From Candidatus Dojkabacteria bacterium (GTDB lineage Bacteria; Patescibacteriota; Dojkabacteria; J137), in assembly GCA_025999215.1 (NCBI GenBank), contig AP024679.1, positions 36,007 to 100,006 of the forward strand: DNA of 64,000 nucleotides, read 5' to 3'. A model generated the notes under the pieces. That model had not been told where the DNA came from. It made no database searches and was given only the letters and a program-made list of their open reading frames with translations. This document shows, in pieces, positions 1,246 to 58,581 of this stretch. Position 1 is the first letter of the stretch. Each line of letters begins with the position of its first letter. The position numbers were made by a program, and so were the translations under genes.

Positions 1246-1274
1246 TTTTAATTTTAAAATTTAAATTCTATTTT

Positions 1275-4782: not shown

Positions 4783-5518
4783 AATTTACTTTCGATAGTA
4801 GTTCCTGCTTACAATGAGGAAAAAACTTTATCAAAAATAATTGAAAGGGTTGTTAATATTAAACTTCCAAGATGGTTGGTCAAAAGAGATAATTATAGTT
4901 AATGACGGTTCCAAAGATAAGACCTTCGATATAATGAAAGATCTTGCTAAAAAGTTTCCTGAAGTTAAAATTTTTGAAAATGAAAGGAATATGGGTAAAA
5001 CTCAGACTGTTAAGAATGGTCTACTGAAAACCAAAGGTGATGTTGTAGTTATTCAGGATGCAGATTTTGAGTATTATCCAGAAGAAATTCCCACTCTATT
5101 AGAAAAAATGATTAAAGAATCACTAGATGTAGTTTATGGAAATAGGTTTGGCAAAAAAAATAAAGTTATTTACTGGAAAAACTACTATGGTAACAGATTT
5201 TTATCGGCTTTTTCTAATTTATTCACTTATCCAAGAATTAAAACTTGGATTCCAGACATGGAAGTTTGCTACAAAATGGTAAATGGTGATATTTTTAGGG
5301 AACTTGCAAAAACGATTGAATCAAAAAGCACTTTTGGATTAGAGCCAGAAGTTACTGCCAAATTATCTAAATATAAAAAAGATGGCAAGCATTTGAAATT
5401 TGGTATAATCGCAATATCATACAAACCTAGAACAATTGAAGAAGGCAAAAAAATGCACGCTTTTAAAGATGGCTCCAAAGCGCTTTTCGAGATATTGAAA
5501 TTTAATTTATTTAAATAA
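4783..5518 (+). CDS. GT2 glycosyltransferase (polyprenol-phosphate / dolichol-phosphate mannose synthase-like), one frameshift near 4868
   Basis: The N-terminus MSNLLSIVVPAYNEEKTLSKII is in one frame. The remainder, DGWSKEIIIVNDGSKDKT...VVVIQDADFEY (DxD motif), lies in the +1 frame. A single extra A in CCAAGATGG explains the shift. Confidence 0.75.
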
Positions 5519-5521
5519 AAC

Positions 5522-5749
5522 ATGGATTTCAAACTTAATGACAGTATCAAAAATCTTGAAGTAAAAAGAGCTAGAGAGATAATTTATTTTATCACCAAGA
5601 CCAGGACTCAACACATTGGACTTGTGCCAACTTTTGAGCAATTGACTGATCATTACCAACGAACAAATAGAAAAGCTATCAGGCTTTTTTTGAAAATTGA
5701 TAGTAAAATTTTACAAAGAGTTAAGCATTTTGTTAGAAAAATTTTATGA
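5522..5749 (+). CDS. small hypothetical protein (75 aa)
   Basis: Open frame only, packed between two glycosyltransferase genes. No recognisable motif. Confidence 0.25.
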   Translation: MDFKLNDSIKNLEVKRAREIIYFITKTRTQHIGLVPTFEQLTDHYQRTNRKAIRLFLKIDSKILQRVKHFVRKIL

Positions 5750-21853: not shown

Positions 21854-24140
21854 CTAGTTTGGTAAATTTCTTGTAAAAATTTTTCTACTCTTCCCTACCA
21901 CAGTTATGTAAGGTTCTGAATTAAACTCTATCAAATCTATTTCACCTGGAGTTTCGCCATCAAGAGTTAGAAAATACCTCTCTTGCCCTTCTGTTATATA
22001 GCCTAAAAATATACTTCCATTTGTACCTCTTGCAGAAACTAAAATTTTATCATTCAACTTTATAAAATCTGTTTCACCAACAACAAAAGAATTTGGTAAA
22101 TACTCCCAATTTGACAAATTGTTTTCTGATGTTCCAAATCTAAAATAAATTTTTCCGCTCCATCCTTTAACTACTTGAAACAATTTTGAATTAAAAACAC
22201 CAATATTGCTTGAACCAGGAACACTACCACCAGTGTGGTACCAGTTTGTAGCTGAAATTTCATCATAACTTCTGACCCAAATTCTACCATCCCAACCTTT
22301 AACTCTCTGATACAGCTTCCCACTATAAACCGTACCATTCCTACTGTTTGTGATCATCCGGCCCTGATCCTCCCCAATTTTCCGGAACTGAACTCCAACT
22401 CGACTTCCATCAAACGCATCTTGTAATGATTTCGCCATTACTTTTTAATGTATGAGATATAAAGTTTTGAATCATGTACTTCCATAGTGAAATCTCAGCT
22501 TGCCGAAACATCGCCTATGTGCTCCCAATTGCGCTCCAATGTACTACCGTCATAACTTCTCACCCATACTCTTCCGTCCCAACCTGGCACAGCAGAGTAC
22601 AACAATTTTCCGTCAAAAGTTTGTAGGGATACGATCAAACTTTGATGATCCTCCCGTGTGTTGCCACTGCGCTCCAACGTACTGAACCATCATAAGCTTC
22701 TCACCCATATTCTCCCGTCCCAACCATGTACTGCTTGATACAACTTGTTATCATAAACTCTTCACTCACAGACCTTGTTATTTCTAGGTGTGCTTCCTCC
22801 ATTCTCTCCCCAAGGGTTCCAGGTACATTAGATAAACTAAATTCAGCATTTATCAACCCATATCCAAATTCTTGATCCCAACCAGGAGTTCCTAAATCGA
22901 TAACTGCAGTTGAAATTACACGTTCTATAGTTTTATTAGAAATGCTGGAATTTTTGGATTTCATTAACGCTGCTAGCGCACTCACTTGCGGAGCAGCGAA
23001 GCTAGTACCAGCGCCACTAATGGGGTTATCTTGTTGTGTAAAATTTTGAAACAAATCCCCAGAGGATTCATCTGAACAAGTATTAGTCAAAAAACATGAA
23101 AATGTTTGAGATACGACCTTAGATGTTGAAAATTGTCCTACTGGTGCTACTACATCAAGTTTTTGACCAAAATTTGAATATTGAGCCCTTGTATCGTTCG
23201 GGTTGATTGCTCCTACAGCTATCACATAATCCATACCTGCAGGAAAATATTGATTTATATCTGAATTATTATTTCCCGCCGAAGCTACAACCACCACTCC
23301 ATTTTGATAAGCATAAGAGAGAGCATTTTGAAGATTTTGATCATAACCTTTACCGCTCAAACTCATATTGATTACATCTGCACCATTATCGACAGCATAT
23401 ATTATTGCATCCGTTAAGAATCAGCCGTATTTGTAACGCCTCTTAAGTCGTTGTCTGGATTGCTACATGTGGGATCATTGTTTCCTTGAGAATCATAGCA
23501 AAAAGATGTGTCGTTTGGGATAAAAAGGTTTTATTGGCATTATTCTGACATTGTGTGCGATTCCTACTAATTTGTCTGGCGCATCCTCGCCTGCTTTTCC
23601 TGCTATTATTGTCGCTACAAAAGTTCCATGCCCATCATCATCATTTGCGTGATTTATCTTTTCTAAGTTCTTGAGTATTGCATGGATATGCTGTACTTTG
23701 TCTCGAATATCGCATATGTATTTTTGAAAAGCATCATAAGGTGAAACAAAATTCATAGTGTGCAAGTTCATTCTGGACTTTGAAAATATCTCCTGTCATA
23801 TCCCTCGTTGATAAACTCGCATTTGGTGCTGATCTAACGGCACCTCAATATTGAGGCCTAGAAAATTTTTGTAGCTGATAGTTTCCTCCTGCGTCATAGT
23901 CGTAGTTTTCATAAGCAACTCCAGTATCAATTACAGCAACAATTACATTTGGATCACCTCCACCATGAAGAATCTACGCTTCACATCCTCCCAATAATTT
24001 CCAAGCTTCTGGAATTTTTATTTTTTCCAAATACCAATGAGTGATAGTGGAATAATCAGATGGTAAAGCTCTGAATGCATCGTATTATCCCAAGTTTCTA
24101 ATTTACTAAATTATATTGGGTTGTATTTTGCATATTTTCA
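21854..24140 (-). pseudogene. degraded subtilisin-like (S8) serine protease with C-terminal lectin-like beta-propeller repeats
   Basis: Pieces in several frames read: N-terminal PEAWKLLGG...VIVAVIDTGVAYENYDYDAGGNY (Asp site); HGTFVATIIAGKA (His site); DAIIYAVDNGADVINMSLSGKG...VVVASAGNNNSD...GTSFAAPQVSALAALM (Ser site). The C-terminal repeats are GKLYQRVKGWDGRIWVRSYD, SKLFQVVKGWSGKIYFRFG and GKLLYSAVPGWDGRVWVRSYDGS. There are in-frame TAG/TGA stops plus multiple frameshifts. Confidence 0.6.
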
Positions 24141-24438
24141 TTAATTAATAAAATGTCTTTCAATAATTTTTTATGCTAAGGTTTTATTAACCAAGATCTA
24201 CCTATAAAAATTTTTAAACTCTTTTACACTTTTAACATAATGTAAATCCTTGATATATAGTCTAAGATGTTCTTCTGATCTATTGTAGATCTTTCTTATT
24301 AAGATTTCAGCATAACTCACCAACGAGTTCACAACTGTTTTCTCCAACTAATGACTTATCGACATAATTTATTGCTTTTTCAATTTTTTGATTTGTATTC
24401 TTTAATTTTTGCACTTGATACCAAAAGCCAGGTTCACC

Positions 24439-25365
24439 TCAAAATTGAATAAAGATTTTGGCCAGGGCAGAGAGTTGCATCTTCTGTTTTTGTGCCCTAC
24501 AACATTTTCTTGCCATTCTCAATTCAACTTCCCAATAATCACTTAATCCTGGCAAGGAGTAGCCTGTAAGGAAGCAAGGGACTTTGATGAAGGGTTTTCC
24601 TGCTCAAAATCCCCAATCAAAGCTATACCTAAAGTTGCATAATTTGGTGGAGAATGAGCTCCAGTTACACCCAAACTACCAGCACGACCTTCATAAATAT
24701 TTCCTTCTTTATCGATTAAAAAGTTGTATCCAATATCTTGCCAAAGTTCATGCGGTTCATCACAATCTTGGTTAGATGGATCATAATACCCCAGAATTAT
24801 TTACACATCTAATTTTATGATATTCATAAATAGCCCTAACTGCACTAGATAAATCATCAGTTGTGTTTTGAAAAACAGTATGATGAATTACAAAATAATT
24901 TATATGTGGAGCAATATATGGTTGCCAAAGAGAATTAGTTGGTGCCCCCCAATCTTCTCGTAATTTTACATCTAATCCTAAATTTCTAAAAAATGATCTT
25001 TTAATATCTGGATCAGGAAAATTATCAGAAGTTAAGTATCTTCTATCTTTAAAATAATGTATTTTCAAGTTATGTCCACTCAAAATTTGAATTTCACTAA
25101 CATCTGAAGAGTATGGAAATAACTCTGAAACAAATGATGAACTGGCATCTTGATTAAATTCATAATCACCATGTAAGTGATCAAATATTTTTTCATTTCC
25201 ATCTTTGTAAATTATTTTAAATTTTACTTTACCCCAATCTATTGCTTCATTAGAAGAAAAACTAAATGCAATGATTTCAGAGTCGTTTGAATGGATACTC
25301 TGTGCAATGACTGTAGAAATTAAAATTGAAAAAAATGAAATAGCAAGAATCAAAAACTTTCTCAT
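24439..25365 (-). CDS. N-acetylmuramoyl-L-alanine amidase (Amidase_2 / PGRP fold) with signal peptide; two frameshifts
   Basis: A signal peptide is followed by an N-terminal domain and then YFVIHHTV...VRAIYEYH. After a shift at about 24780 it reads WQDIGYNFLIDKEGNIYEGRAGS...GAHSPPNYATLGIALIGDF...ATPC. After a further shift at about 24500 (CC versus CCC) it reads PGLSDYWEVELRM. Confidence 0.7.
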
Positions 25366-30265: not shown

Positions 30266-30309
30266 TTCAATAATAACACAAAAATTAAAGTCAATGATAT
30301 AATCTAAAA

Positions 30310-32103
30310 ATGTCAAAATACAAATTTGATCCCAAAATTTATCAACAAGAATTAATAGAAATCGCAAAAGAATTGGCGCTATCAGAATCTTTGAGTAAAA
30401 AATATATAGACAGAGTAATAAAAAAACACCCTCAAGATGGAAATAAAGTCTTCAGCAGGGATAAACTAATTTTAGGATTAAAGTGGTTGTGGAAAAATGG
30501 TTTAGTTGATTTTGATCAAGCAAAATTAAAACACATAATTAAATGTTTAAAACTCAAACCTACCAGAAGCATATCAGGAGTTACAACTGTTACAGTTTTA
30601 ACAAAACCCTTTGCATGCCCAGGAAAATGTATTTTCTGCCCAAATGACGTGAGAATGCCCAAAAGCTACATTGCAACAGAGCCCGGAGCACAAAGAGCTC
30701 TTATGAATAGATTTAGTCCCTATCTTCAAGTTTGGAATAGATTGAAAGCTCTACAAAACATTGGGCACCCTACCGATAAAATTGAATTGTTAGTTTTAGG
30801 TGGAACGTGGTCTTATTACCCTGAAAAATACAAAGTATGGTTTATTGAAGAATGTTTTAGAGCAATGAATGATTTTGGCAAAAATTTAAAAAATACAAGT
30901 GATAAAATAATCGAAATAAAAGAATATTTACAAAATGATTACAATGATGAACTTAGAAAAGAAACAGGCGATAAACCATACAATCAATTAATTCAAACTC
31001 CTCAATTTAAAAATCATTTTAAAAAATTCCTATCACCTGAGCCTAATTTAGAATTAGATATTTTGTGGAAGAAATTAGAAGAAGAGCAAGTTAAAAATTC
31101 AAAAGGCAAGGTCCGGTGTGTAGGGTTAGTGCTTGAAACAAGACCTGACTGTATCACACCTCAAGAAACGCTAAGACTTAGAAAATTAGGGGCAACTAAA
31201 ATTCAACTTGGAATACAGACTTTGGATGATAAAATAAGCGAATTAAACAAAAGAGGTGAAACTAAAAAAGACACAATAAATGCTTTCAAATTATTAAGAT
31301 CAGCTGGATTTAAAATACATGCACATATAATGCCAAATTTGTATGGCTCCAATCCAAAAACCGATTTGAAAGTTTACAAAGAACTATTTAGCTCTCCTAA
31401 TTTTCGACCTGATGAAATTAAAATTTATCCAGCATCAATCATCAAGCACACAGAACTAGAAAAACTTTACAAAGAAGGAAAGTATAAACCCTACAGCACA
31501 AATGAGCTTGTAGACTTAGTGGCAAAATGTATAGAAGTAACACCTGAATATTGTAGAATCACAAGAGTAATACGAGATATTCCGTCTACCGAGATAACAT
31601 CTGGCAACAAAACTACTAATTTACGAGAAGTGGCGGAAGATAAGTTAAAAAGGGAAGATAGACCAAACAGAAATATCAGAGCACGAGAAATTAAAAATCA
31701 AAAAATTAATCTGAAAGAACTTAAACTTGATCAAATAAAATACGAAACAATTAATAGCTTGGAATATTTTTTGCAATTTATAACAAACGATAGAAAAATT
31801 GCAGGTTTTTTAAGATTATCGGTTCCTAAACAATTTAAAAACCCTATTACCAGTGAGCTTGATGATTGCGCAATTATCAGGGAAATTCATGTATACGGAC
31901 CAAGTTTGGGGATCAACACCAAATCTTTTGGAGAAGCTCAACATCTTGGTTTGGGAACGAAATTAATCAAAAGAGCTGAAGAAATAGCAAAAAAGTATAA
32001 TTTTCCCAAACTTGCTGTAATTTCAAGTATTGGAACAAGAGAATATTACAAAAAGCGTGGTTTTGAATTGATCAAGCTTTACCAGATTAAAGAATTGTTC
32101 TAA
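30310..32103 (+). CDS. elp3: Elp3 homologue: radical-SAM plus GNAT tRNA U34 carboxymethyl-modifying enzyme
   Basis: Radical SAM cluster FACPGKCIFCPN; Elp3-specific PKSYIATEPGAQRAL and LVLGGTWSYYPEKYKVWFIEECF; C-terminal GNAT REIHVYGPSLGI...HLGLGTKLIKRAEEIAKK. Confidence 0.85.
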   Translation: MSKYKFDPKIYQQELIEIAKELALSESLSKKYIDRVIKKHPQDGNKVFSRDKLILGLKWLWKNGLVDFDQAKLKHIIKCLKLKPTRSISGVTTVTVLTKPFACPGKCIFCPNDVRMPKSYIATEPGAQRALMNRFSPYLQVWNRLKALQNIGHPTDKIELLVLGGTWSYYPEKYKVWFIEECFRAMNDFGKNLKNTSDKIIEIKEYLQNDYNDELRKETGDKPYNQLIQTPQFKNHFKKFLSPEPNLELDILWKKLEEEQVKNSKGKVRCVGLVLETRPDCITPQETLRLRKLGATKIQLGIQTLDDKISELNKRGETKKDTINAFKLLRSAGFKIHAHIMPNLYGSNPKTDLKVYKELFSSPNFRPDEIKIYPASIIKHTELEKLYKEGKYKPYSTNELVDLVAKCIEVTPEYCRITRVIRDIPSTEITSGNKTTNLREVAEDKLKREDRPNRNIRAREIKNQKINLKELKLDQIKYETINSLEYFLQFITNDRKIAGFLRLSVPKQFKNPITSELDDCAIIREIHVYGPSLGINTKSFGEAQHLGLGTKLIKRAEEIAKKYNFPKLAVISSIGTREYYKKRGFELIKLYQIKELF

Positions 32104-37348: not shown

Positions 37349-39841
37349 TTAAGTATTTTTTACAACTTGAAATTTACCGTTTTTATAATCAATTATAACT
37401 TTATCACCACTCGCTATTTCTTCTTTTAGCAATGCCTCAGCAAGTAAATCGTCAATTTCTTTTTGCACTACTCTCCTTACTGGTCTAGCACCAAACTCTG
37501 GTTGATAACTAATTAATGCCAACTCTTCAATTGCTTTTTTTGTTACTTCAAGCTCAATATTTTGATCTTTCATCATTTTCTTAGTCTTGTTCAAGAAAAG
37601 TTCAACAATTTTTATAATTTGATCTGGCGATAACGCTTGGAATACTATGATTTCATCAAGCCTGTTTAAAAATTCAGGTCTAAAATGTTTTTTCAATAGT
37701 TCAAAAATTGCTGCCTTAACATCATCCCAATTCGGAACGAGTTCCTTAGTTTCTTTCATCTTAATTATTTTTGTATCATTTTCCTTTTTCATTGAATCAA
37801 CCATTTTCCCTATTTGTTGAGCACCAAAAGCACTTAAGATTAAATCTGAACCAATATTGCTCGTAGCAATAATAATCGTATTTTTAAAATCCACAGTTCT
37901 ACCTTTTCCATCAGTTAGCTTTCCATCATCCATAACTTGAAGCAATATATTAAACACATCAGGATGAGCTTTCTCTATCTCGTCAAAAAGAATAACTGAG
38001 TATGGTTTTCGTCTAACTTTCTCAGTTAACTGACCACCTTCATCATAACCCACATAACCAGGTGGGGATCCAATTAAACGAGTTACCGCGAATTTTTCCA
38101 TATACTCACTCATATCAATTCTAATCATTGCATCCTCATCACCAAAAACAAGTTCTGATAAAGCTTTAGCAAGCTCAGTTTTTCCAACTCCTGTTGGACC
38201 CAAAAATAAAAATGAGGCAATAGGTCTGTTAGGATCTTTCATTCCAGTTCTAGCTCTTCTGATTGCTCTAGCCACAAGATGCACGGCTTCATCCTGTCCT
38301 ATCACTCTTTTGTGTAATTCATCTTCAAGATTCAAAAGTCTATCTTTTTCCTCTTTATTTAGCTCAGTTATTGGAATACCTGTCATTCTTGAAATAATTT
38401 CATGTATATCACTCACTTTAACAACAGGAGTACCTGTACCTCGCTTTCGTTGCCACTCTTCCTCTATTGGCTTCATTTGTTCTTTGATTTTTTCAATTTC
38501 AACCTTTATTTCAGCTGCTTCTTTATGCTGTCCTGCTCGTGTTAAAGCTTCTCTCTCAGCTTCTAGCTTATTAATCTCATTTTTGTATTCTCTAAGCTCA
38601 TTTGGCTCACTTGTAAAATTTAGTTTAACTCGACTACAAGCTTCATCAAGTACATCAATAGCTTTATCTGGTAAAAATCTATTTTTTATGTACCTGTGAG
38701 ATAGTTCTGAAGCTGCGGCTATTGCTTCATCATCGATTTTTAACTTATGATGAGCCTCATAACGCTCTTTTAAACCTTTTAAAATTTTTATAGTATCTTC
38801 AACACTTGGCTCATTTATGAGCACAGGTTGAAATCTTCTTTCTAAAGCTGCATCTTTTTCAATATATTTTTGATATTCATTTAGAGTTGTTGCTCCAATT
38901 ACTTGCAACTCTCCTCTTGCTAAAGCGGGTTTGATCAAATTTGAAAAATCTAGTTCTCCCTGTTGAGCTCCAGAACCAACAATTGTATGTAATTCATCAA
39001 TAAACAAAATAACCTTTCTTTCTACTTTTTGTAATTCATCGAGTAATTTTTTTGCTCTTTCTTCAAATTCACCTCTATATTTCGATCCAGCAACCAAACC
39101 TGCAAGATCAAGCGCTTTAACTTTTTTATCTTTAAGCACTTCTGGTACTTGACCATTTACTATCCTCAAAGCCAGACCTTCCGCTATTGCTGTTTTACCG
39201 ACTCCTGGTTCTCCTATCAAAACAGGGTTGTTCTTTTTTCTTCTTGACAAAATTTCTATAACCCTTGTTATTTCCTCATCTCTTCCAATCACAGGATCAA
39301 TTTTGTCTTCCATAGCAAGTGCAGTTAGATCTTTTGTAAACTCATCCAATGTTGGTGTTTCAGTTTCACCTAAATTTTTTCCTTCTTTATCGCCTTGCCC
39401 AACAATTTTTATTACAGCTTGTCGCGCTTGTGGATGCGTTATTGCGTACTTTCTCAAAATTTGTGCAGCAATTCCCTCGCTTTCTAAAATTAATCCTAAA
39501 AACAAATGTTCAGTTCCAATGTAGTTGTGATTCAATTCAAGTGCTTCTCTATAAGCTAACTGAACAACTTGTTGCGCCCTTGGTGAAAAGGAAGGTTTAT
39601 CAATTGAAAAATTTCCAACAGAACACTGCTTATCAACCACATTTTTTAATTCTTCAACCTTTATTCCAAGCTCCTTAAAAACCCTATTCATTACCACATC
39701 ATCAGATGTTAAAGCATACAGCAAGTGTTCGGTGTCAACTGACCGCTGTTTTTTTGAAACGGCATATTCTACCGCATTCTGCAGTGCTGTTTCTGTTCTT
39801 TTGGCAAATAGATCTGATAGGTTCATACCTAATTTTAGCAC
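37349..39841 (-). CDS. Clp/Hsp100 AAA+ chaperone (ClpB/ClpC family; short ~75-aa middle domain resembles ClpC more than ClpB)
   Basis: Two Clp_N repeats; NBD1 [13 protein letters not shown]; NBD2 [14 protein letters not shown]; sensor and arginine-finger regions; 830 aa. Confidence 0.9.
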
Positions 39842-39865
39842 ACTTTATTAAAGAGTGCTAATTTT

Positions 39866-41820: not shown

Positions 41821-42912
41821 TTATACTTCATTTTTTACAAAATTCTGGAGAATATTATAGAACTCAATCAAACTATCTATATCTACCCATTCCTCGTCGC
41901 TTGCAATTCCACCTCCGATTGGTCCAAACTCTACTGCTGGTATCCCTATACGTGCGTAGTGCCTTGCATCGGAAGAACCCATAGCAGAATAAAATTTTTG
42001 TTTTCTTTTTGTTATTTGCTCAGTGATAGATTTTAATTGTTGCAAATAAGCATTATTTTCTTCAACATTTAGACACGGTTCGTCAACTACAATCTCAACA
42101 CCATCCGCCCTACTTTCTTTTTAATTTTTTCTATCAAACCTTCTTTATCTTCTGGTAAATATCTCAAATCCAAACTTAAAATACATTCATCAGGAATTTT
42201 ATTGAAAGCTTTATTGTTTGTTTCAATGTTACTAAAATTTACAGAAGTTACCCAGACATTTTTTTCTTGAGTTTTTGGAATAGGAAACAATTTCAAAATT
42301 CTTCTCAATTGCTTCACTTGCTTTGCTGGATTGAATTTAGCCCAAGCCAAGGATAAGCTCCATGAGCTGTTTTTCCTTTAAATTTTAGTTTAAGCCATAC
42401 TATTCCTCTTGCCCTTTATTGACTATATCAAAATTTGTAGCTTCACCTGCTATCACAAACTTTGCTCGAACGCCTTGATCAATCTGATATTTCGTTCCAT
42501 AAAACCCTCCCACCTCTTCGTCAGTAACTATTTGTAGGGCAACTGAAGTGTTGGTTTTGTGAGCTATATCTCTAAAAGCATAAACCATACTAGCAATATT
42601 GCCTTTCATATCCATGCTCCCAATACCATAAATTTTATTATCTTCTATTCTAGCCTGATATTTTTCAAATTTTGCAGGTATGACATCTAAGTGCCCGTTA
42701 AGGATTAAATCAAAGTTTCTGTGTCCTGTTGATTTGTTGTGAATCAGTAAACTTTTGTAGCCATTACTTTCAAACTCTTCGATCGTATAGTCAGTTAGCT
42801 CACTTTTAACAATTTCTAAACTATTTTCTAATTCGGCAAAATTAGTAGGGTTAGTTTTTATTTCAATGAGTTTAACTGCAAGGTCGATTATTTTTTGTTT
42901 TATTTGTTTCAC
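41821..42912 (-). CDS. M20 family metallopeptidase (ArgE/DapE/CPG2-like), split into three ORFs by two frameshifts
   Basis: Piece 1 carries GHLDVIPAK...YGIGSMDMKG. Pieces 2 and 3 carry the C-terminal dimerisation and catalytic part (...GSSDARHY...IPAVEFGP). Gaps lie at about 42060 and about 42370. Confidence 0.65.
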
Positions 42913-43482: not shown

Positions 43483-44955
43483 TTATGCTTCTAATTGATT
43501 AACATCTCTTGAATGCGTTTGTTGGTTTGGAACATCCTTTCTTACGTTCGTCATATCAACAAAAAATTTAAAAATCTCGAAAATAATGTGTTGCAAAGCT
43601 TGTAACAAAGCTTCTTTAGATTCAAATTTATTTTCCTTAATTCGGTTTATCGCATCTTGGTGAATATTAATGATCATAGAAACATATTCGCTCCTTTGAT
43701 TATCGTCTAATCTTATGTAGTGACCTGTATTTTCTACATAGCCGTTTATTTGAGATAAATCAGGGATTTGAAGAGCGCCAGCATCCCTAAAAATATCATT
43801 TACAATTTCTAAAACTGCCACTACGACATCTTTGCTAGGTAATAAGAGAGAAACATCTTCTTGCCACTTTTCTTGAATATATGGTTGTTCTGGTGGGACT
43901 CCTCTCAGCGTAAGTCCATGTGTTTGGGCTTGGTTTATGAAATCTTGCAGTGGATTTATCATGAAGCCTCCAAGATCTTCCATCCAAAAAACATCAACAT
44001 CAAGCATTGCATTTAATGCCATGAAAATTCCTGGGTATATGCCTGAATAATAAGTTTCAGCAGTTGGTCGACATAAAACAGTTTCGTTACTCCTTATTGC
44101 TTCAATTAGTGCGTTCTGATCAACTGTCTCAAACTCATTATTTCCATCTGAATATGTGTTCATTTTCCGGAAAACTCGACCTTGACTTACTACATAATAT
44201 TGTGTTGTTGTACCTTCCCCATAAATCACAAATCCAAATGGTTTATTTGGTAGCGAAACTTGGTCATAATTCTCAGTTGGAGGAGAACTTAGTCCTTCTA
44301 ATATATTTAAGACTGCATCCTTGAAAAAAGCGTCTAAATCTAGTTCTGGTACTTTACAAACAGGAATCATTTCTACGTACATATTCATAAGTTTGGTATA
44401 AAAATCTTTTAAGTCCAAAATTTCATCAGAGTTATTATATTCGGTATCTTTACCCAACAAAGTTTTTGCCATATTATTAGCATTTTTTGGAACAACAGAA
44501 TGATTATGCAATGGGTGACCTGCTTTCCCTCCATTTTCATGAAGACTTTTATGCTGGGATATCCTAGGCCTTACACTTTTATCTTGGATGTAAGGTCTGT
44601 CTGATGGCATATTGAATTTTAGAACTTGTGGAATTATAGTTCTATACTTCTCTATATTTTGTGACGAAAATATATCATTAAGATCTAGAACTATATATTT
44701 TGCGCCAACTAATGAAGCTGCAATTGCGCCTGCTATATTTCTCACATTTGGAACATTTAAGTGCTGGACTGATATTACTACTGGATCTGTTTCACCATTT
44801 AATATTGTTTGAATATATTTTCCAAAATGTGACCGTACTAAATCACAATACTCTCTAATACCAAACATATTCTCCATAAATTCATTAATAATCTTAATAC
44901 GCTCGCCTCTATTTTCATAATTTGGCTCTGATTCATTAAAGTAATTTAGCTCCAT
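43483..44955 (-). CDS. hypothetical protein (490 aa), no recognisable domain; composition is less AT-biased than its neighbours
   Basis: Long intact ORF. It is preceded by the promoter / structured leader / terminator described below. Confidence 0.4.
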   Translation of the reverse strand: MELNYFNESEPNYENRGERIKIINEFMENMFGIREYCDLVRSHFGKYIQTILNGETDPVVISVQHLNVPNVRNIAGAIAASLVGAKYIVLDLNDIFSSQNIEKYRTIIPQVLKFNMPSDRPYIQDKSVRPRISQHKSLHENGGKAGHPLHNHSVVPKNANNMAKTLLGKDTEYNNSDEILDLKDFYTKLMNMYVEMIPVCKVPELDLDAFFKDAVLNILEGLSSPPTENYDQVSLPNKPFGFVIYGEGTTTQYYVVSQGRVFRKMNTYSDGNNEFETVDQNALIEAIRSNETVLCRPTAETYYSGIYPGIFMALNAMLDVDVFWMEDLGGFMINPLQDFINQAQTHGLTLRGVPPEQPYIQEKWQEDVSLLLPSKDVVVAVLEIVNDIFRDAGALQIPDLSQINGYVENTGHYIRLDDNQRSEYVSMIINIHQDAINRIKENKFESKEALLQALQHIIFEIFKFFVDMTNVRKDVPNQQTHSRDVNQLEA

Positions 44956-44985: not shown

Positions 44986-45009
44986 TAAAAAATCTCCCTT
45001 TCGGGAGAT
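44986..45009 (-). terminator. rho-independent terminator (stem UCUCCC-GAAA-GGGAGA followed by UUUUUU) located 30 nt upstream of the 43483..44955 start codon
   Basis: Perfect 7-bp inverted repeat ATCTCCC/GGGAGAT at 44992-45009 with an A6-7 run at 44986-44992 on the plus strand, which is a U-run on the minus strand. Confidence 0.5.
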
Positions 45010-45091
45010 TAATATTTATTTACCATCTCCCCTACCTCTAGATATTCACTAGAGATAAGATGATATTTGAGCAGATGGTAAAGTTTTTCAT
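44986..45091 (-). ncRNA. candidate small structured RNA or cis-regulatory leader (~106 nt), containing a 17-codon mini-ORF (MKNFTICSNIILSLVNI)
   Basis: Minus-strand sigma70-like promoter TTGACA-17nt-TAGAAT (plus coordinates 45097-45125). Predicted transcript GUGUCAUGAAAAACU[UUACCAUCU]GCUCAAAUAUCAUCUUAU[CUCUAG]UGAAUAU[CUAGAG]GUAGGGG[AGAUGGUAA]AUAAAUAUUAA[UCUCCC]GAAA[GGGAGA]UUUUUU. It has a 9-bp outer stem, a nested 6-bp hairpin and a terminator hairpin followed by a U-run. Confidence 0.35.
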
Positions 45092-45096
45092 GACAC

Positions 45097-45125
45097 ATTC
45101 TAGCATAGTCAGCGTAGTTTGTCAA
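45097..45125 (-). promoter_or_regulatory. sigma70-like promoter (-35 TTGACA, 17-nt spacer, -10 TAGAAT) reading leftward
   Basis: Plus strand 45120-45125 TGTCAA (reverse complement TTGACA); 45097-45102 ATTCTA (reverse complement TAGAAT); the spacer 45103-45119 is 17 nt. Confidence 0.4.
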
Positions 45126-45189
45126 CACATTTTGCTCTAAAACTCAAAACATTATTAACAAATTATGCTTTTTAATTTATACTTTTATA

Positions 45190-48171
45190 ATGATCTCAGA
45201 AAGTTTAAGGAAAATAGTCAAAAAATCTAACATCCTTGCAATTTTATTTGCATTAGTTGCAATTTTTTCAGTAAGCAATATTTCGAGTCAAATAGAAGAA
45301 GGGAGAATTATACCTTTCGGGATACTCAACAATGTTTTTGCTGAATTTTCTCGGTCTGCACCAAACAGCACGAAACTTGCTAAAAATTTATCAACATCAT
45401 CAAATATCCAAGACCAATCGGATAGATGCCAAATTGTTGACCCAAATAGACCTGATATTTTAACTGCTTGGGAATACGAGGGAGTCAGTGGCGCTCAAAT
45501 TAAAGGAGATAATATTGCTGGAGCTAACCCTGGAGTTTCTTATGGAGCAGGCTTTGATGCGCCCAAAGATGAGACCGTTAGAGATTACGCAAGTAGTCTC
45601 GGAATGAGTTATAATCTTGCTATATTTAGTGCACCAAATGAAGTTGGCAATGCGATTGCATTTGTGAATGCCAACATTGATGCTGGATTCATACCCATCG
45701 TAAGGCTTTGCGTTGCAGTTGCTGATTCATGCCAATTTAATAGCCCAAACGATGTAATTGGTTTTTATACAGCGCTTCACGATGGAGCTAACGGAGAATT
45801 TATAGCTATGGTTGGACCAAATGAGCCCGGAACTGGTGAAGATGGTTACATTGAAATGAATGGATTTGGCGGAATCAATTCTTATGCTCAAATAATAAAT
45901 TTTGTAAACGAAGCTGCTACAGGACTTCAAAAGTATAGAAGCATTAATGGAGGAAAAATGTATTTATCCCCTGGAGCTTTTAACCTAACCAATCCAATAA
46001 ACCGTGATGTATATGAGTATCTCTACAATCCATCAAACCCAAAGCTCAAAATTAATTTGTTTGATTATCTTATGGGAAATGTCTATGCTCAAGGCGAGCC
46101 TGCTGTTAAAAATGTGCCCTACCCTTACGCAACTTACAGAGATGGAGAAAACCATGATGGAAATGGACTTGGTAATTTTGCGGAAGAAAATAATATTCCT
46201 GTGATTTTGACAGAATTTGGCATTTTCAAAGAAGCAGGTGATAGTAAAACAGTTCTTTTAAATGAAGCTATAGAATCTTTTAAGTTATTTTGCGCAGATG
46301 AAACAATTGCTGGAGTGTTGTTTTTTCAATCATTTTTAAATGACGATGGAACAGTTTTAATAAGTGATATAGAGCAAAGAAAGGAATTTCATGGGTTAAC
46401 CAAACAAGAACATAGCTTAATAATTGGAGACTGTACGAAATCTAGTCCATTTAAAGATTGGGCATGGGCTAACTGTAATTTTGACTCTTGTATCTATAAA
46501 GATTATGAGTATGATCCAAAATCAACTGCATCAGCTTGTGGTGTTGAAGATAAACCTTTAACGGGTGATGGTAAACCTGCACTCAAAGTCGTATGCTCTA
46601 ATGGAATTTGTAGTACCAGAGCTATTAAGACTATCGATATTGGAATGCCAATTAGACATTTTGGAGGAAATAGTTTAAATGGTTCACCAACTCACCAGTA
46701 CCCATCAATTTGTAGTGAACTTTCAACTCAATTTGCAAATAAAAATTATGACACCATAAACCAATTTGCAGGTGTAATTAACATGGGTGGAACCCAATAC
46801 CCAATGCCATGGCTTGGATCGGCTATAAATTGCGCGAGCCAATTATTGCTAGCTACTCAAGAATTTGCATACCTTACACCAGATAAATATACATTTAACC
46901 CACATCCAGGAAGTAAAATTGAAGAAATCGTTAACGAAATAAACTCAGACGAAATTTACGGCATGCCATGGGAAACATACAACGGCGCTATACCAGGCGA
47001 ACCACTTTATGATGCAGCGCCAACCATGAATGAAACGCGCTCAATTATCGATGAAGCAGCAATATGCTTGATGCGCGATGAAGCAACTGATCTGGACGAT
47101 AGATTATTTTGCCTTGATAAACGAAAAAATCCCAACCAAGTATTTGCTTTCAACGATTATGATCCGTACAAAAGCGATTTAGAGTGGGAAAAGTCTACCT
47201 GCAACACAAATATGGTCTATAGAAAAGACCCCAAAAATATGATCTATGGACCTGAAATTCAAGTGTCAGACATTGAGACAGTAGAAACTATTTCTGAATC
47301 AGAACTATGTTATGAATTTGCACGCAGAAACTCAGAAGGAGTAACCTCAAAAATACTAGCAGGTGTTGATTATCCTAGGTATTTCCCTGATGGTGACACA
47401 TCTAACGCTACTCCAAATTGTCAAATAGATCGTACAAAATTTGTAAATGGAGTTTCATGTGCTGCTCTTAGTTGTTCAAGCTCTGATATTTTAAAAGGAA
47501 AATGTAAGGCTGACTTAAGGTTTAAAGATTGTTTTAACTATGTAAATTCTTCACAATCAAGTGAACATCAAATTTATTTGAAAGCAGATAGCAATGTTTT
47601 CGCGCAAGTTCCACAAGTTGAAATAGAAGGAATTTACGATGCTTTGTACTGGATGTACCTACGCACTCAAAATTCTTTCAAAAATAAAAAATTCAAAATA
47701 GTATTTAGAGAAAACATCGGAATGAATGTTGAGGTAAACTCTAAAATTAGGGATGCCAACAGAGGAAAAGATGATGCGCTTAATCCGAAATTTCCAGCTG
47801 GCGAGTCCGAAAATCTGTACGCTCAGGAATTAAACTCTTGTGAAGTGCCAGACAACATGTACTCGTATAACAACCTGCTAGCAAAAAATAGCCCAATTAA
47901 AACTCAATATCAATACTTTGATTGGCTTGGATATTTGGACATTTTGCAAGAAATACAGAAAGTTTATTTTGGTAACACTCATACTTGCCTGATATCAACT
48001 TTGAGACAAAATCTAGACTCTTTGGTACAGAGGGCAGCTCCAAATAGCGATAGAGAGTTTATTTTGGTGAGTGGTTCCGCGTTAAAAACAATGAGTTATC
48101 CCCTATTCACTTGTGATGAACTCAACTTAAGAATAGCCAAAGATCCATATTTTACGCTTATATGGAAATGA
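45190..48171 (+). CDS. large secreted protein: N-terminal TIM-barrel glycoside hydrolase of clan GH-A (GH5-like), plus a ~600-aa Cys-rich C-terminal region of unknown function
   Basis: Signal/TM ILAILFALVAIFSV. The MVGPNEPG (NEP acid/base motif) and ILTEFGIF (nucleophile motif) sit about 135 aa apart. There are many conserved Cys residues in the C-terminal half. Confidence 0.5.
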   Translation: MISESLRKIVKKSNILAILFALVAIFSVSNISSQIEEGRIIPFGILNNVFAEFSRSAPNSTKLAKNLSTSSNIQDQSDRCQIVDPNRPDILTAWEYEGVSGAQIKGDNIAGANPGVSYGAGFDAPKDETVRDYASSLGMSYNLAIFSAPNEVGNAIAFVNANIDAGFIPIVRLCVAVADSCQFNSPNDVIGFYTALHDGANGEFIAMVGPNEPGTGEDGYIEMNGFGGINSYAQIINFVNEAATGLQKYRSINGGKMYLSPGAFNLTNPINRDVYEYLYNPSNPKLKINLFDYLMGNVYAQGEPAVKNVPYPYATYRDGENHDGNGLGNFAEENNIPVILTEFGIFKEAGDSKTVLLNEAIESFKLFCADETIAGVLFFQSFLNDDGTVLISDIEQRKEFHGLTKQEHSLIIGDCTKSSPFKDWAWANCNFDSCIYKDYEYDPKSTASACGVEDKPLTGDGKPALKVVCSNGICSTRAIKTIDIGMPIRHFGGNSLNGSPTHQYPSICSELSTQFANKNYDTINQFAGVINMGGTQYPMPWLGSAINCASQLLLATQEFAYLTPDKYTFNPHPGSKIEEIVNEINSDEIYGMPWETYNGAIPGEPLYDAAPTMNETRSIIDEAAICLMRDEATDLDDRLFCLDKRKNPNQVFAFNDYDPYKSDLEWEKSTCNTNMVYRKDPKNMIYGPEIQVSDIETVETISESELCYEFARRNSEGVTSKILAGVDYPRYFPDGDTSNATPNCQIDRTKFVNGVSCAALSCSSSDILKGKCKADLRFKDCFNYVNSSQSSEHQIYLKADSNVFAQVPQVEIEGIYDALYWMYLRTQNSFKNKKFKIVFRENIGMNVEVNSKIRDANRGKDDALNPKFPAGESENLYAQELNSCEVPDNMYSYNNLLAKNSPIKTQYQYFDWLGYLDILQEIQKVYFGNTHTCLISTLRQNLDSLVQRAAPNSDREFILVSGSALKTMSYPLFTCDELNLRIAKDPYFTLIWK

Positions 48172-48309
48172 AAATTTAAAAATTACCTGCGTTACTGATT
48201 TAAGCGATGAAAGATACTCTGATGAATTAGGCGAATTTTTATGTTCCAAAGGATACGAAGTACCTGGCATTTGTGATAATTTATTCTGCCCTGTTCAAGT
48301 CAAGCCAAG

Positions 48310-50342
48310 TAAATACTGGTAACTGTCGTTGAGGACGGAATTATTGACGAAGGAGGAGTTTACGTGAAAGATTGACAAAGACGCTAAATATGTTGCCAGC
48401 CAAAGTAATGGCGGAAGTATTGTTGAACCAATTGAAAATTTTGTAGAAAAAACAGGTGCCAGTGTTGCTATAAATGCAAATTTATACAACCAATTTGGTG
48501 TTCCAGAAGGGCTGTACGGAGGGCAAGGTCAGATTTCATATGTAGTCCCCAGGTCCAGAGCGAAGTGACTACAAAATTTCAATGCTTATTGGTAATTTAA
48601 ATACTGATGCTCCGTACATAGCTGGTAATGTTGTAGCTGAACGTGATAATAAATTTTATTTAGTTGATATAAGTAAGTGGAATGCTTTGGATGCTAATAC
48701 TATTAACGCACTTACCCAAGGTACGTTAGCAGGAATAGATGTAGCAATTACCGGTTCGGCTATAGTTGGTGTAGATTCTCAAATTTATAAAGATTACACA
48801 ACAATGTCTTTAGAAGAATTTAATCAGAAACACTCATATTCTGACTACTTACAAAAAACTGTACGTACTATTATTGGATGGGATAACAGATCTAATGTTG
48901 TATTTTTAATTTTAGATAACGCAGACTTTTATACAATGCTTGAAAAGTCAGCTGAGGTAGGCATATCTTACGGAATAGTGATGGATGGAGGTGTATCATC
49001 ACAATTGTTTTATGAAAATGGATTTGAAAATGTTGATAGCAAGCTAAGAGAAAATAATCCAAAAGTTTATGATCCATCAGGTCAAGGACGTAGCGTAGCA
49101 GGTTATGTTGGAGCAATTTTAAATCAAACTTCTCAACAACTAACAAGAGCTTCCGCTACGGGCAATTTTTCGCTTATTTATCCTACAGATTATAAAGAAA
49201 TTGAGCATGAATCACTTGATTACGGTTATGAAAGATCAGAAACTTGGACGCATGCAGGACTTGATTTTGTAGGTACAAAAGGATCACCTATTTATGCATC
49301 AGCTTCAGGAACAGTTATTGTGGCTAGACCCGTAGAGCCAAACCACAACAGAGACGCTCAACCCTACGGAAATTTTGTGATGATAGAACACTCTAATGGT
49401 TATGTAACGCTTTATGCTCACTTGGATAAAATTTCGGTTAAAAAGGGTGATATTGTGCTTGCTGGAGACACGATAGGAACAATGGGTAATACTGGAAATG
49501 TATATTGTGAAGGTAACAGGCGTCCTAGTGGTCCTGATGATGATACTTGTGGTGTTCACTTACACTTTGAACTTAGAAAAAATAAAAATTGTAAATGGGA
49601 TGGTAACCCTCTAACTTCAGTCTTTGGTAGTTGTACTATGGATCCAAAACCATTTCTCTCTGGGTCAGTAAGAGGTAGACAAGTCTTTTGCGGTGTAGAT
49701 AACACTCTTAATCTTGATCAAACTGGTGTGCTTGGATGTAATTTGAACATAAAAGATATTAATGACAACCCAGATTTTGCAAAATTAACACCAATAATCT
49801 CAACTAGAATCAAATCTTACAACCTTGATGATAATTTGAGTCATACTTGGCTATATTCACCATACGAAAGTGAAGAATTATTTAACCAGATTAAAGATCA
49901 AAAATTTAATGGATCGTTTGATGCAGCAAAATTACATGCTCAATTCAGAAAAGAAGTTACAGATTTTGTAATCAGTAAATCAAAACAATTAGGAGTAAAT
50001 CCAAGATTAGCATTAACTCTTTGGATAGAAGAAAGTGGAGGAAGCGCGCTTGGCAGAGCTGCAATGGGTTGTCTATATTTCAGAGGCACTGCTCAAGAAA
50101 CATCTACTCTACCCCTTGATTATGATCCACTTGATGAAAGTTATAAACAAAAAACTTTAGATCATTTGAATGAGCAAATTGAGTGTTTAGCAAGTTATGT
50201 AAATGAATTTGATAACTTTAGAGAATTCATGTGTACATATTCTGGTGAATCTGATAGAAAAAATTGTCAAATATTTACAAACAATCCTAATTTTCCGGTA
50301 AATGTTTGTAGAATTTATAATTATCAAGAACAAAAATTCTAA
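48310..50342 (+). CDS. peptidoglycan hydrolase: phosphodiester-glycosidase (NAGPA-like) domain fused to an M23 (LytM/lysostaphin-like) metallopeptidase domain; N-terminal region frameshifted at least twice
   Basis: NAGPA-like KTGASVAINANLYNQFGVPEGLYGG...GIVMDGGVSSQLFYENG. M23 HAGLDFVGTKGSPIYASASGTVIVA...GNFVMIEHSNGYVTLYAHLD...GNTGNV...GVHLHFE. The upstream pieces (ILVTVVEDGIIDEGGVYVKD / KIDKDAKYVASQSNGGSIVEP...) lie in different frames. Confidence 0.6.
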
Positions 50343-57752: not shown

Positions 57753-58581
57753 GTTTACGAATTAAGTATTCCACTAAATTAAACCTTTCGTCAAGATGTA
57801 ACGGTACTATAGAAAAATACACTGGATAACTAAACAAACCCGTATTAAACGTAACTTTTCTTCTTTTAACATCTTGAAGCTTCAATGGTCTCGATGATTT
57901 TACCCGTGGCCATAGCTCTTTAACTTGATCATTTGTATCTAAAAAGTAAATAGTTTTACTAACCACATCATCATCTACCATAAATCCACACTTTGTATAA
58001 AAAGACTCTAACAAATCTTTTAGAATATTAAAATAACTATTTCTTTTGAGAAATTTTTTTCCAAGATTATCATCCAATACAATCTCAATTAGCGATCTAC
58101 CCTTGTTTTTATCTACTTCATCTTGATTTAGTCTTAAAAATCTCCTCATCGCATTTGATATTTCCCAAACTCTATACCTATCATCCAATAAATACCCAAA
58201 CACCCATGGCTTATTAAAAAGCTCTCTTACGGATTCAACTGCTTTTGTTACGTCTTCTTCACTTGGTGGATCCATTCGTTTACCATATGTGTATTCTCTC
58301 TCAAGTAAACTCATCTCTAACACATCCGCTATCGCGTTTAATGTTTCTTTATTGGCATTTGTTACTCCGTTTTCTATTCTTGAAATTGATCCTGACGCTG
58401 CTCCTATCTCTAATTCAACTTCAAACTGAGAGAGATTGGCTCTTTTCCTGAAGTATCTTAGTCGTCTTCCAGTGATGAAGGCATCCCCCAGCATACTTGT
58501 AGTGCTGTGTTTTTTTTTGGCTGTAAATGATGCCTGTAGTTTCATTGCGGTGATTTTACAACAAGTACAAGTTGATGTCAA
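57745..58581 (-). CDS. XRE-family helix-turn-helix protein (paralogue 2; the true start is probably the internal Met at about 58494)
   Basis: Same HTH as paralogue 1. The C-terminal domain is homologous but diverged. Confidence 0.6.
   Translation of the reverse strand: MTSTCTCCKITAMKLQASFTAKKKHSTTSMLGDAFITGRRLRYFRKRANLSQFEVELEIGAASGSISRIENGVTNANKETLNAIADVLEMSLLEREYTYGKRMDPPSEEDVTKAVESVRELFNKPWVFGYLLDDRYRVWEISNAMRRFLRLNQDEVDKNKGRSLIEIVLDDNLGKKFLKRNSYFNILKDLLESFYTKCGFMVDDDVVSKTIYFLDTNDQVKELWPRVKSSRPLKLQDVKRRKVTFNTGLFSYPVYFSIVPLHLDERFNLVEYLIRKHD
58165..58473. repeat. direct repeat copy B
   Basis: See copy A. Confidence 0.8.

Follow-up and report, generated by a model that had tools for sequence, protein, structure and literature searches.

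The 64,000-nt stretch of a Candidatus Dojkabacteria bacterium genome analyzed here (contig AP024679.1, positions 36,007 to 100,006; below, the window, numbered from its first letter) contains, on the minus strand between 45125 and 44986, a promoter, a short open reading frame (ORF), a highly structured RNA and an intrinsic terminator. This leader RNA, the subject of our analysis, lies immediately upstream of a gene for a 490-aa protein, which the annotation of a Candidatus Dojkabacteria metagenome-assembled genome (862-kb contig) lists as hypothetical. The gene opens a same-strand run that goes on with a 150-aa orphan, a split M20 peptidase, an M28-like protein, an M42 aminopeptidase and a ClpC-like protein; on the other side of the leader, a 993-aa ORF is divergently oriented. 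The features of the locus are listed below from the promoter onward; L002 denotes a syntenic locus of a second genome.

45120..45125 (-): -35 hexamer TTGACA; the same hexamer is present in L002
45097..45105 (-): extended -10 element TGcTAGAAT; its L002 counterpart, TGgTAAAAT, is in the same place
45038..45091 (-): leader ORF of 17 codons, translated from the sequence as MKNFTICSNIILSLVNI, with its stop, TAG, at 45040-45038
45073..45082 (-): region 1, UUUACCAUCU, codons 4-7, the 5' arm of the outer stem by folding; predicted to block the antiterminator by way of region 2
45057..45065 (-): region 1', AUAUCAUCU, including the Ile10-Ile11 codons; substitute partner of region 2 in constrained folds that mask the initial 20-25 nt
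45033..45057 (-): inner hairpin P2 by folding, 9 bp including one G-U, with loop UGAAUAU and a CUCUAG/CUAGAG core
45032..45034 (-): second in-frame stop, UAG, read from the sequence and abutting GGGGAGAU
45019..45031 (-): region 2, GGGAGAUGGUAAA, by folding either the 3' arm of the outer stem or the 5' arm of the antiterminator
45003..45014 (-): region 3, UAUUAAUCUCCC, by folding the 3' arm of the antiterminator; the terminator 5' arm, AAUCUCCC, lies at 45010-45003
44987..44998 (-): region 4, GGGAGAUU plus the U6 run, by folding forming the terminator with region 3 and a GAAA loop
43483..44955 (-): putative regulated gene for the orphan 490-aa protein, first of the same-strand run (ORF, database searches)

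The promoter joins TTGACA to TAGAAT across a 17-nt spacer, just as a preliminary description of the locus had read it. It scores 11 of 12 positions plus the TG of an extended -10, which puts it at the top of the 10 kb scanned and ties it for best across the 64 kb. The ATG of the mini-ORF, at 45091, follows 5 nt past the -10 hexamer (TAGAAT-5-ATG). This spacing is a habit of the window, where 12 of 51 ORFs (~24%) have a -10-like hexamer 5-7 nt ahead of their ATG; offsets of 5, 6 and 7 nt account for 3, 6 and 3 genes, any other offset for about 1. Both neighboring genes share it; the divergent 993-aa gene has TATACT-6-ATG and the ClpC-like gene TAAAAT-5-ATG. Examples of the spacing can be seen at 45155-45192 (+), 30281-30312 (+) and 58545-58581 (-), and the ClpC/ClpB-like gene, with its ATG at 39826, itself looks leaderless. 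The window has a G+C content of 30.5%, and most of its genes lack Shine-Dalgarno sequences; leaderless mRNAs seem to be a major expression mode of this Dojkabacteria genome. Since the mini-ORF ATG has the leaderless spacing of the genome, it is a plausible translation start, placed at a predicted transcription start. The preliminary description had recorded the 17-codon frame and passed over it for want of room for a real protein; the codons are there, and the leaderless spacing of the ATG speaks against the dismissal. The ORF ends in UAG AGG UAG. Its first stop finishes 6 nt before GGGAGAU and its second directly adjoins it, a UAG-GGGAGAU junction also found in five leaders of other genomes that we discuss below (L010, L007, L011, L041, L037).

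From +1 through the end of the U-run the RNA measures about 105 nt, close to the ~106 nt first proposed. The 118-nt RNA has a minimum free energy of -39.4 kcal/mol; dinucleotide shuffles average -21.1 +/- 3.2 kcal/mol, and none of 200 matches it (z = -5.7). When 110-nt windows were slid along both strands (12,778 in all; mean -14.0, sd 4.9), ranks 1-3 all fell on the leader RNA, although its G+C content is only 32%. The fold is strand-specific, the plus strand reaching -27.8 kcal/mol, 11.6 worse. The structured RNA and the canonical terminator behind it thus stand as first described, and only the sizes of the elements change: the outer stem has 10 bp (UUUACCAUCU/AGAUGGUAAA) instead of 9, the inner hairpin 9 bp around the same core instead of 6, and the stem of the terminator 8 bp. 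The fold of outer stem and inner hairpin includes an 11-nt asymmetric internal loop, and the stop codon of the ORF sits in the 3' arm of P2, a possible pause hairpin. The leader is identical in L001, an independent assembly of short reads from the same organism that differs by 2 mismatches in 2,477 nt.

The terminator, AAUCUCCC-GAAA-GGGAGAUU followed by U6 (45010-44987, minus strand), has 4 G-C pairs among its 8 bp and is the best terminator-like site of the whole window. The U-run ends 31 nt before the ATG of the 490-aa gene at 44955, a distance first given as 30 nt. With this site excepted, canonical intrinsic terminators are at or below shuffle expectation throughout the window (1-64000): terminator-like sites found and expected were 9 and 7.0, 3 and 8.0, 6 and 5.8, and 2 and 5.3. 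The genome apparently ends its genes without canonical intrinsic terminators. Because such sites are at background level elsewhere, the one at 45010-44987 is exceptional rather than part of that background.

A second set of pairings competes with the terminator. The 3' arm of the outer stem, GGGGAGAUGGUAAA, and the 3' arm of the terminator, GGGAGAUU, have GGGAGAU in common, and this heptamer can pair with AUCUCCC of the terminator 5' arm to form an antiterminator. GGGAGAT occurs 6 times when both strands (128 kb) are counted, and a 40-nt part of the leader holds three of these occurrences. The complete antiterminator pairs GGGAGAUGGUA (45031-45021) with UAUU-AUCUCCC (45014-45003). Its energy alone is -9.9 kcal/mol, that of the 3:4 terminator -12.2 kcal/mol, and once the 5' part of the RNA is masked the two folds lie close in energy. 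The 1:2 duplex (-19.0 kcal/mol) is far more stable than duplexes with shuffled ORF sequence (z = -4.7). We then folded the nascent 89-nt RNA, from which region 4 is absent, with a 28-nt ribosome footprint blocked. In this model, a ribosome with the codon for Ile6, Ile10 or Ile11 in its A site makes the 2:3 antiterminator the minimum-energy fold. When no ribosome is present, 1:2 forms and then the terminator; a ribosome standing on the stop codon covers part of region 2, and here too the terminator is formed. The structural elements of a classical attenuator, namely a 5' ORF, a terminator, a 2:3 antiterminator, a 1:2 helix and an appropriately placed stop codon, are all present in the sequence and in the folding model. 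The leaderless ATG spacing, the GGGAGAU antiterminator repeat and the stop codon beside region 2 had not been part of the preliminary description.

Given these features, the structured RNA is probably a transcription attenuator of the ribosome-mediated, leader-peptide kind (trp/phe/leu type) whose mini-ORF is leaderless. The steps that follow are deduced from sequence and folding. Transcription would start at or beside the first base of the ATG (45091), with a ribosome loading straight onto the 5' AUG. If none does, region 1 should pair with region 2, the 3:4 terminator would form, and transcription would stop ~31 nt before the 490-aa gene. Smooth translation to UAG AGG UAG would place the ribosome on the first bases of region 2, and the terminator would again form. 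An early stall, with Ile6, Ile10 or Ile11 in the A site in the folding models, would instead mask regions 1 and 1', so that GGGAGAUGGUA of region 2 could pair with UAUU-AUCUCCC of region 3 before region 4 is made. The antiterminator would then block the terminator, and RNA polymerase would continue into the 490-aa gene and perhaps also into the peptidase genes that follow. As the stall both masks regions 1 and 1' and yields the antiterminator, the signal would be a ribosome translating the leader slowly. The terminator-based cis-regulatory layout originally suggested is thereby supported and narrowed to a leader-peptide attenuator; the riboswitch and the independent small RNA (sRNA) that had been offered beside it are less likely.

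The architecture is that of the classical attenuators (E. coli trpL, pheL, pheM-pheST, leuL, ilvL, hisL and thrL; the predicted leuS and trpS attenuators of Streptomyces, PMC1262725), in which an ORF lies right behind the promoter, 1:2 and 2:3 pairings alternate, a 3:4 terminator precedes the gene, and the stop codon is placed such that a terminating ribosome covers region 2. Unlike these, the leader in the window has neither a 5' untranslated region nor a Shine-Dalgarno sequence, it carries four scattered Ile codons in place of a single-residue run, its regulated gene is an orphan and not a biosynthetic or aminoacyl-tRNA synthetase gene, and its host belongs to the Dojkabacteria within the candidate phyla radiation (CPR). 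The proposed search against Rfam (Rfam 15) was carried out across the window, and no family reaches its gathering threshold. At E <= 10, the locus gives only a sub-threshold match to Phe_leader (RF01859; 23.4 bits, gathering score 55, E = 0.095 in a 351-nt search). That alignment is full-length and runs from the AUG region through the long 1:2 helix to the terminator, yet it is an architectural resemblance and not membership; the element is outside every curated Rfam family. The earlier statement that the RNA matches no recognized motif therefore holds for Rfam but not for its architecture, which is the classical 1:2 / 2:3 / 3:4 arrangement.

Alternative pairings of this kind exist without translation, and a ribosome-independent switch could exploit them: a ligand (OFF riboswitch), an RNA-binding protein or temperature would act on the outer-stem and inner-hairpin fold (P1-P2), with the mini-ORF incidental. 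The fold is very stable, its 11-nt asymmetric internal loop is a possible binding site, the gene run ends in a ClpC-like heat-shock gene, and the name of the source suggests a hot spring. Moreover, four loci of other genomes (L014, L026, L028, L046) have the same arms with tandem GAAGGUUAGCC repeats in place of a leader ORF. We nevertheless regard such a switch as unlikely. No Rfam family other than a leader-peptide model appears at E <= 10, and ClpC has its own promoter with a repeat resembling CIRCE (controlling inverted repeat of chaperone expression). The conserved aptamer with covariation that marks a riboswitch was not found: Rfam gives no match, and the hairpin is absent from L002; a novel aptamer could still escape notice in a single sequence. 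Nor would such a switch require a leaderless ATG and stops abutting region 2, a combination that recurs in ~20 unrelated loci.

Which shortage a leader-peptide attenuator would sense can be approached through its codons. The peptide contains 4 Ile among 16 residues (background 9%, P = 0.05), and Ile, Leu and Val make up 6 of its last 8. All four Ile codons are AUC, which is rare in the window (148 of 1,526 Ile codons), and the three early ones lie within regions 1 and 1'. By analogy with leaders preceding leuS, in which Leu codons form region 1, our best guess for the sensed amino acid is isoleucine, a guess that we hold only tentatively. Shortage of isoleucine or of branched-chain amino acids is likewise our best guess for the signal, with general translation stress as the alternative. 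An amino-acid-scavenging response would make sense given the peptidase genes behind the 490-aa gene, if the operon were continuous.

The promoter at 45125 is, to judge from synteny, that of the 490-aa gene itself, and the structured RNA its 5' leader. In L002, both divergent promoters are retained nearly base for base, TTGACA-17-TGgTAAAAT in front of the homologue of the 490-aa gene and TTAACA-17-TATACT in front of the large protein, and this conservation underlies the assignment. Between the terminator and the ATG we found no other promoter site of >=9/12; a weak TATGTT, noticed by eye, lies 7 nt ahead of the ATG. The conserved promoter, and the lack of another before the ATG, argue for a cis-regulator over a free-standing sRNA gene. 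A strong promoter and a strong terminator would of course also release a discrete, stable transcript, and an attenuator-derived RNA can act in trans, as does rnTrpL of Sinorhizobium (PMC6614838). It is nonetheless improbable that the ~105-nt RNA is primarily an independent sRNA, or a released attenuator RNA, acting in trans, with its place beside the 490-aa gene secondary: the promoter belongs to the downstream gene, the 64-kb window holds no second copy and no obvious target complementarity, and the RNA is not kept in L002, the nearest relative. A role in trans would, besides, add to an attenuator and not replace it. A scan for tRNA and tmRNA genes found none, and a search for second copies of the element in the window was likewise negative.

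The relationship to L002 extends across the locus. There, a large, divergently encoded M23/NAGPA protein shares 68% identity with the 993-aa ORF of the window, and a ClpB/ClpC-like gene lies downstream. A word-indexed search of 5.8 billion proteins returned no match to the 490-aa protein but itself. In a HMMER scan of 1.84 billion representatives, a single true remote relative emerged (P0002, E = 2e-14), which is encoded in L002; a further hit, P0003, was rejected as a repeat-protein artefact. The 490-aa protein (43483-44955, minus strand) and its L002 counterpart (5001-6545) share 26-28% identity, in contrast to 68% for the adjacent large protein. The 490-aa family is an unusually fast-evolving orphan, seen in two genomes. 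Neither the 490-aa nor the 150-aa protein matches anything in Pfam, NCBIfam, PADLOC or a PDB sequence search, and an AlphaFold2 model of the former (predicted local distance difference test score, 42.6) was too poor for a fold search. In the distant relatives L003-L005 the 490-aa gene is absent; the ClpC-like gene is directly divergent from the big M23 protein in L004 and L005, and an ABC-transporter gene lies between them in L003.

The absence of the element from its sole syntenic relative, and the several frameshifted genes that the genome carries, could mean that it arose recently or is decaying without function, or that its parts came together by chance. We think this very unlikely for an RNA that combines the top fold of 12,778 windows with the best terminator and the joint-best promoter, contains a rare 7-mer three times and recurs with identical sequence in an independent assembly.

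The same arrangement recurs in other genomes. Species-representative genomes were scanned with the pattern GGGAGAT-N(8-30)-ATCTCCC-N(3-6)-GGGAGATTTT, whose 25 fixed bases give a rough chance estimate of <1 match, and metagenome contigs with the same pattern and slightly wider gaps. The scans returned 6 genome loci, 5 of them in Patescibacteria, and 36 metagenome loci. We set aside as not being leader-ORF attenuators the high-GC matches L012, L031, L033 and L035, the palindrome arrays L013, L015, L020, L023 and L039, and the plain terminators L006, L009=L021, L029=L045 and L034=L038. Retained were 18 automatically tabulated loci, the window included, and three read by eye whose promoter or start the script had missed (L016, L030, L036). 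In the retained loci, an ATG opens a leader ORF of 12-30 codons 4-12 nt past the -10 of a near-consensus TTGACA/TATAAT promoter, features on which the pattern made no demand. In 18/18 tabulated loci the end of the ORF stop lies from -11 to +13 nt relative to GGGAGAU, a placement that was a selection criterion; in frames +1 and +2, a stop falls in that span for 0/18 and 1/18 loci. In the tabulated loci, 0-58 nt separate the U-run from the start of the downstream gene; in L048 the distance is about 95 nt. Folded at full length, most members reach their energy minimum with region 2 paired to part of the ORF. The antiterminator of several members is longer than the fixed 7 bp, and the sequences of the extensions are unrelated (UGU/ACA, UUGU/ACAG, CUGAGGUA/UAUUUUAG; in the window, GGUA/UAUU).

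The recurrent cassettes, Patescibacterial wherever they are named (L007, L008, L010, L011, L016-L019, L022, L025, L027, L030, L032, L036, L037, L040-L044, L048, L049) are like the leader in the window in their identical antiterminator and terminator arms, near-leaderless ORF and stop at or beside GGGAGAU. They differ in having no similarity to it outside the arms and in the genes downstream, which encode leuS, a trpS-like synthetase, a methyltransferase and hypothetical proteins. Many Patescibacteria leaders thus appear, from their sequences, to reuse the GGGAGAU/AUCUCCC arms across lineages, which does not imply common descent with the window. In several cassettes, the terminator 3' arm is at Shine-Dalgarno distance from the start codon, unlike in the window. 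In L008, L017, L041 and L044, the downstream ATG lies only 8-11 nt past GGGAG of this arm, and the hairpin would there also hide a Shine-Dalgarno-like sequence, giving joint transcriptional and translational control. Such a role may explain why GGGAGAU arms recur, though not in the window; there, we rejected GGGAGAU as a Shine-Dalgarno sequence, the genes lacking such sequences and the ATG being 37 nt away.

Two groups of pattern matches share the arms and differ in other ways. In the palindrome arrays, three 20-nt palindromic hairpins AATCTCCCTnnAGGGAGATT, spaced by ~40-60 nt, occupy one intergenic region each and carry the attenuator arms with no leader ORF (L013 ~1930-2080, L020 ~340-490, L039 ~5380-5540, L015 ~5100-5260, L023 ~220-375); they may be operators, terminators for both directions or a repeat element. 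In L014 (~1225-1330, minus strand), L026, L028 and L046, tandem GAAGGTTAGCCnTCAGAAACT copies stand just before the GGGAGAU antiterminator/terminator and a secreted-protein gene. With no plausible leader ORF, this group looks like a protein- or RNA-mediated antitermination variant.

Some of the cassettes precede aminoacyl-tRNA synthetase genes. Six leaders were assigned to leuS (L043, L027, L048, L049, L016, L030). A leucyl-tRNA synthetase (LeuRS) downstream is backed by Pfam or by listed Pfam domains in L043, L048 and L049, the latter two having been fetched through LeuRS homologues; the truncated product of L027 is closely similar to that of L043, and L016 and L030 were assigned by leader alignment, the downstream gene not having been located. 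One of the LeuRS proteins is labeled "Pacearchaeota" at NCBI, and its nearest named relatives are labeled "Patescibacteria group". The six leader peptides, each followed by a stop codon, read MKYRVVANLLLLNQ, MKVTSLTSLLLLKQ, MKQITITNFLLLNQ, MKQIIITNLLLLLKQ, MKQIIMTNLLLLKQ and MKAISLASLLLLKP, with the consensus MK......(L/F)LLL(L)(K/N)(Q/P)-stop. Their N-terminal half varies freely, while frame, length and Leu run are kept, and the Leu codons (CUU/CUC) make up region 1. The match of regulatory codon to gene is clear in the leuS loci. L018 precedes a 333-aa class-I synthetase of the Trp/Tyr type, and its 12-residue peptide contains Trp. No leader was found at L050, which encodes a LeuRS of 68% identity. 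Attenuators of leuS and trpS have been predicted in Streptomyces, and attenuation of pheST is known in gamma-proteobacteria (PMC1262725). Judged by their sequences, the leuS and trpS-like cassettes are classical amino-acid attenuators of aminoacyl-tRNA synthetase genes, and we infer that the cassette of these loci, in genomes of the Patescibacteria type, attenuates by sensing the ribosome. They support the proposed working of the element in the window and do not prove common descent.

The leuS group also bears on the idea that the 17-aa peptide is itself a functional product, with a promoter and a terminator of its own. The start has leaderless geometry, the peptide is hydrophobic, and some leader peptides have functions of their own (peTrpL papers). 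A small-protein gene is still highly improbable: 17 residues do not suffice to span a membrane, the ORF lies within helices that exclude one another and has its stop set against the antiterminator, a regulatory rather than coding layout, and the leuS leaders keep only their Leu run.

Several observations weigh against an attenuator in the window. Conservation of the stems in related genomes, on which the preliminary description had let its proposal depend, does not extend to L002: its ~110-nt leader has neither an ORF that begins with ATG nor a terminator, and its fold is not significant (z = -0.97), so that neither ORF nor alternative helices are conserved in the sole syntenic relative. Covariation evidence for the window copy is lacking, the 490-aa gene being an orphan without a closer relative in the protein collections. 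No single amino acid forms a run in the leader peptide, whose composition is confounded by the complementarity of regions 1 and 2 (AUCU with AGAU). As pairing with AGAU of region 2 demands AUCU, the choice of Ile codons may be structural. The transcription start is a predicted one. The genome makes almost no use of canonical terminators, and the efficiency of this one is therefore uncertain. The database searches give no lead to the function of the 490-aa gene, so that any link from signal to gene is conjectural. Finally, the other loci were found by a pattern that fixes the stems; what recurs is an architecture, and homology with the element in the window is not implied.

Several observations concern the neighboring genes. 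A CIRCE-like inverted repeat, TTAGCACTC-N9-GTGTGCTAA at 39835-39861 (minus strand), overlaps the promoter of the ClpC/ClpB-like gene; it has one mismatch to the HrcA operator consensus. The large M23/NAGPA protein (45199-50330, plus strand), a single 1,705-aa ORF in L002, is spread over three frames in the window (45199-48168 in frame 1, 48152-48565 in frame 2, 48549-50330 in frame 3). This implies two frameshifts, which may be assembly indels, the mark of a pseudogene or recoding. The M20 peptidase (41821-42912, minus strand), a second frameshifted gene and part of the run, is split into three successive ORFs of 170, 87 and 74 aa that correspond to the Peptidase_M20 N-terminal part, M20_dimer and the Peptidase_M20 C-terminal part. 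Farther away, 2.3 kb at 22440-24780 (minus strand) contain short broken ORFs, raised G+C content and several of the most stable folds of the window, e.g. at 22531-22670 and 24511-24680. The stretch has no Rfam match at E <= 0.1 and could be a decayed gene or an unrecognized RNA.

Two further groups of ribosome-stalling regulators invite comparison. According to Canestrari et al. (bioRxiv 10.1101/834739), leaderless short ORFs with polycysteine tracts in mycobacteria act on translation by unmasking a ribosome-binding site; as is proposed for the ORF in the window, they lie at the 5' end of an operon and serve as a ribosome-stalling sensor for downstream genes. The leader in the window differs from them in that its predicted output is an intrinsic terminator and that it lacks a Cys run.

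Antibiotic-responsive ribosome-mediated attenuators, e.g. upstream of vmlR, lmo0919 and bmrCD, were reportedly described by Dar et al. in 2016. They combine a short upstream ORF with a terminator and an antiterminator, have no amino-acid run, and read through upon any stalling in the upstream ORF. Unlike the leader in the window, they govern resistance genes of Firmicutes from Shine-Dalgarno-led ORFs; no link between the 490-aa gene and antibiotics is apparent. We found no report in the literature of transcription attenuation in CPR/Patescibacteria.

Almost nothing is known about gene regulation in CPR/Patescibacteria. The mechanism proposed here is a textbook one; what deserves attention is its phylogenetic setting and the recurrent cassette, not a new principle. 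A broader scenario is possible, though we hold it with considerable doubt: an undescribed, widespread Patescibacteria family of leaderless attenuators would share the GGGAGAU/AUCUCCC/GGGAGAU arms, with the terminator 3' arm often doubling as a Shine-Dalgarno sequence; it would replace T-box control of leuS and trpS and also drive lineage-specific orphan genes, and the element in the window would be a member that switches on orphan and aminopeptidase genes under a shortage of isoleucine or of translation capacity. If this is true, it would amount to an amino-acid-scavenging response in a CPR bacterium presumed to make few amino acids. The locus and its ~20 look-alikes suggest that these reduced genomes use ribosome-coupled attenuation, that they place it on leaderless mini-ORFs, and that one arm sequence may be reused across lineages, including before leuS and a trpS-like gene. 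They would offer a testable handle on amino-acid sensing in these organisms and flag the orphan 490-aa gene as conditionally expressed.

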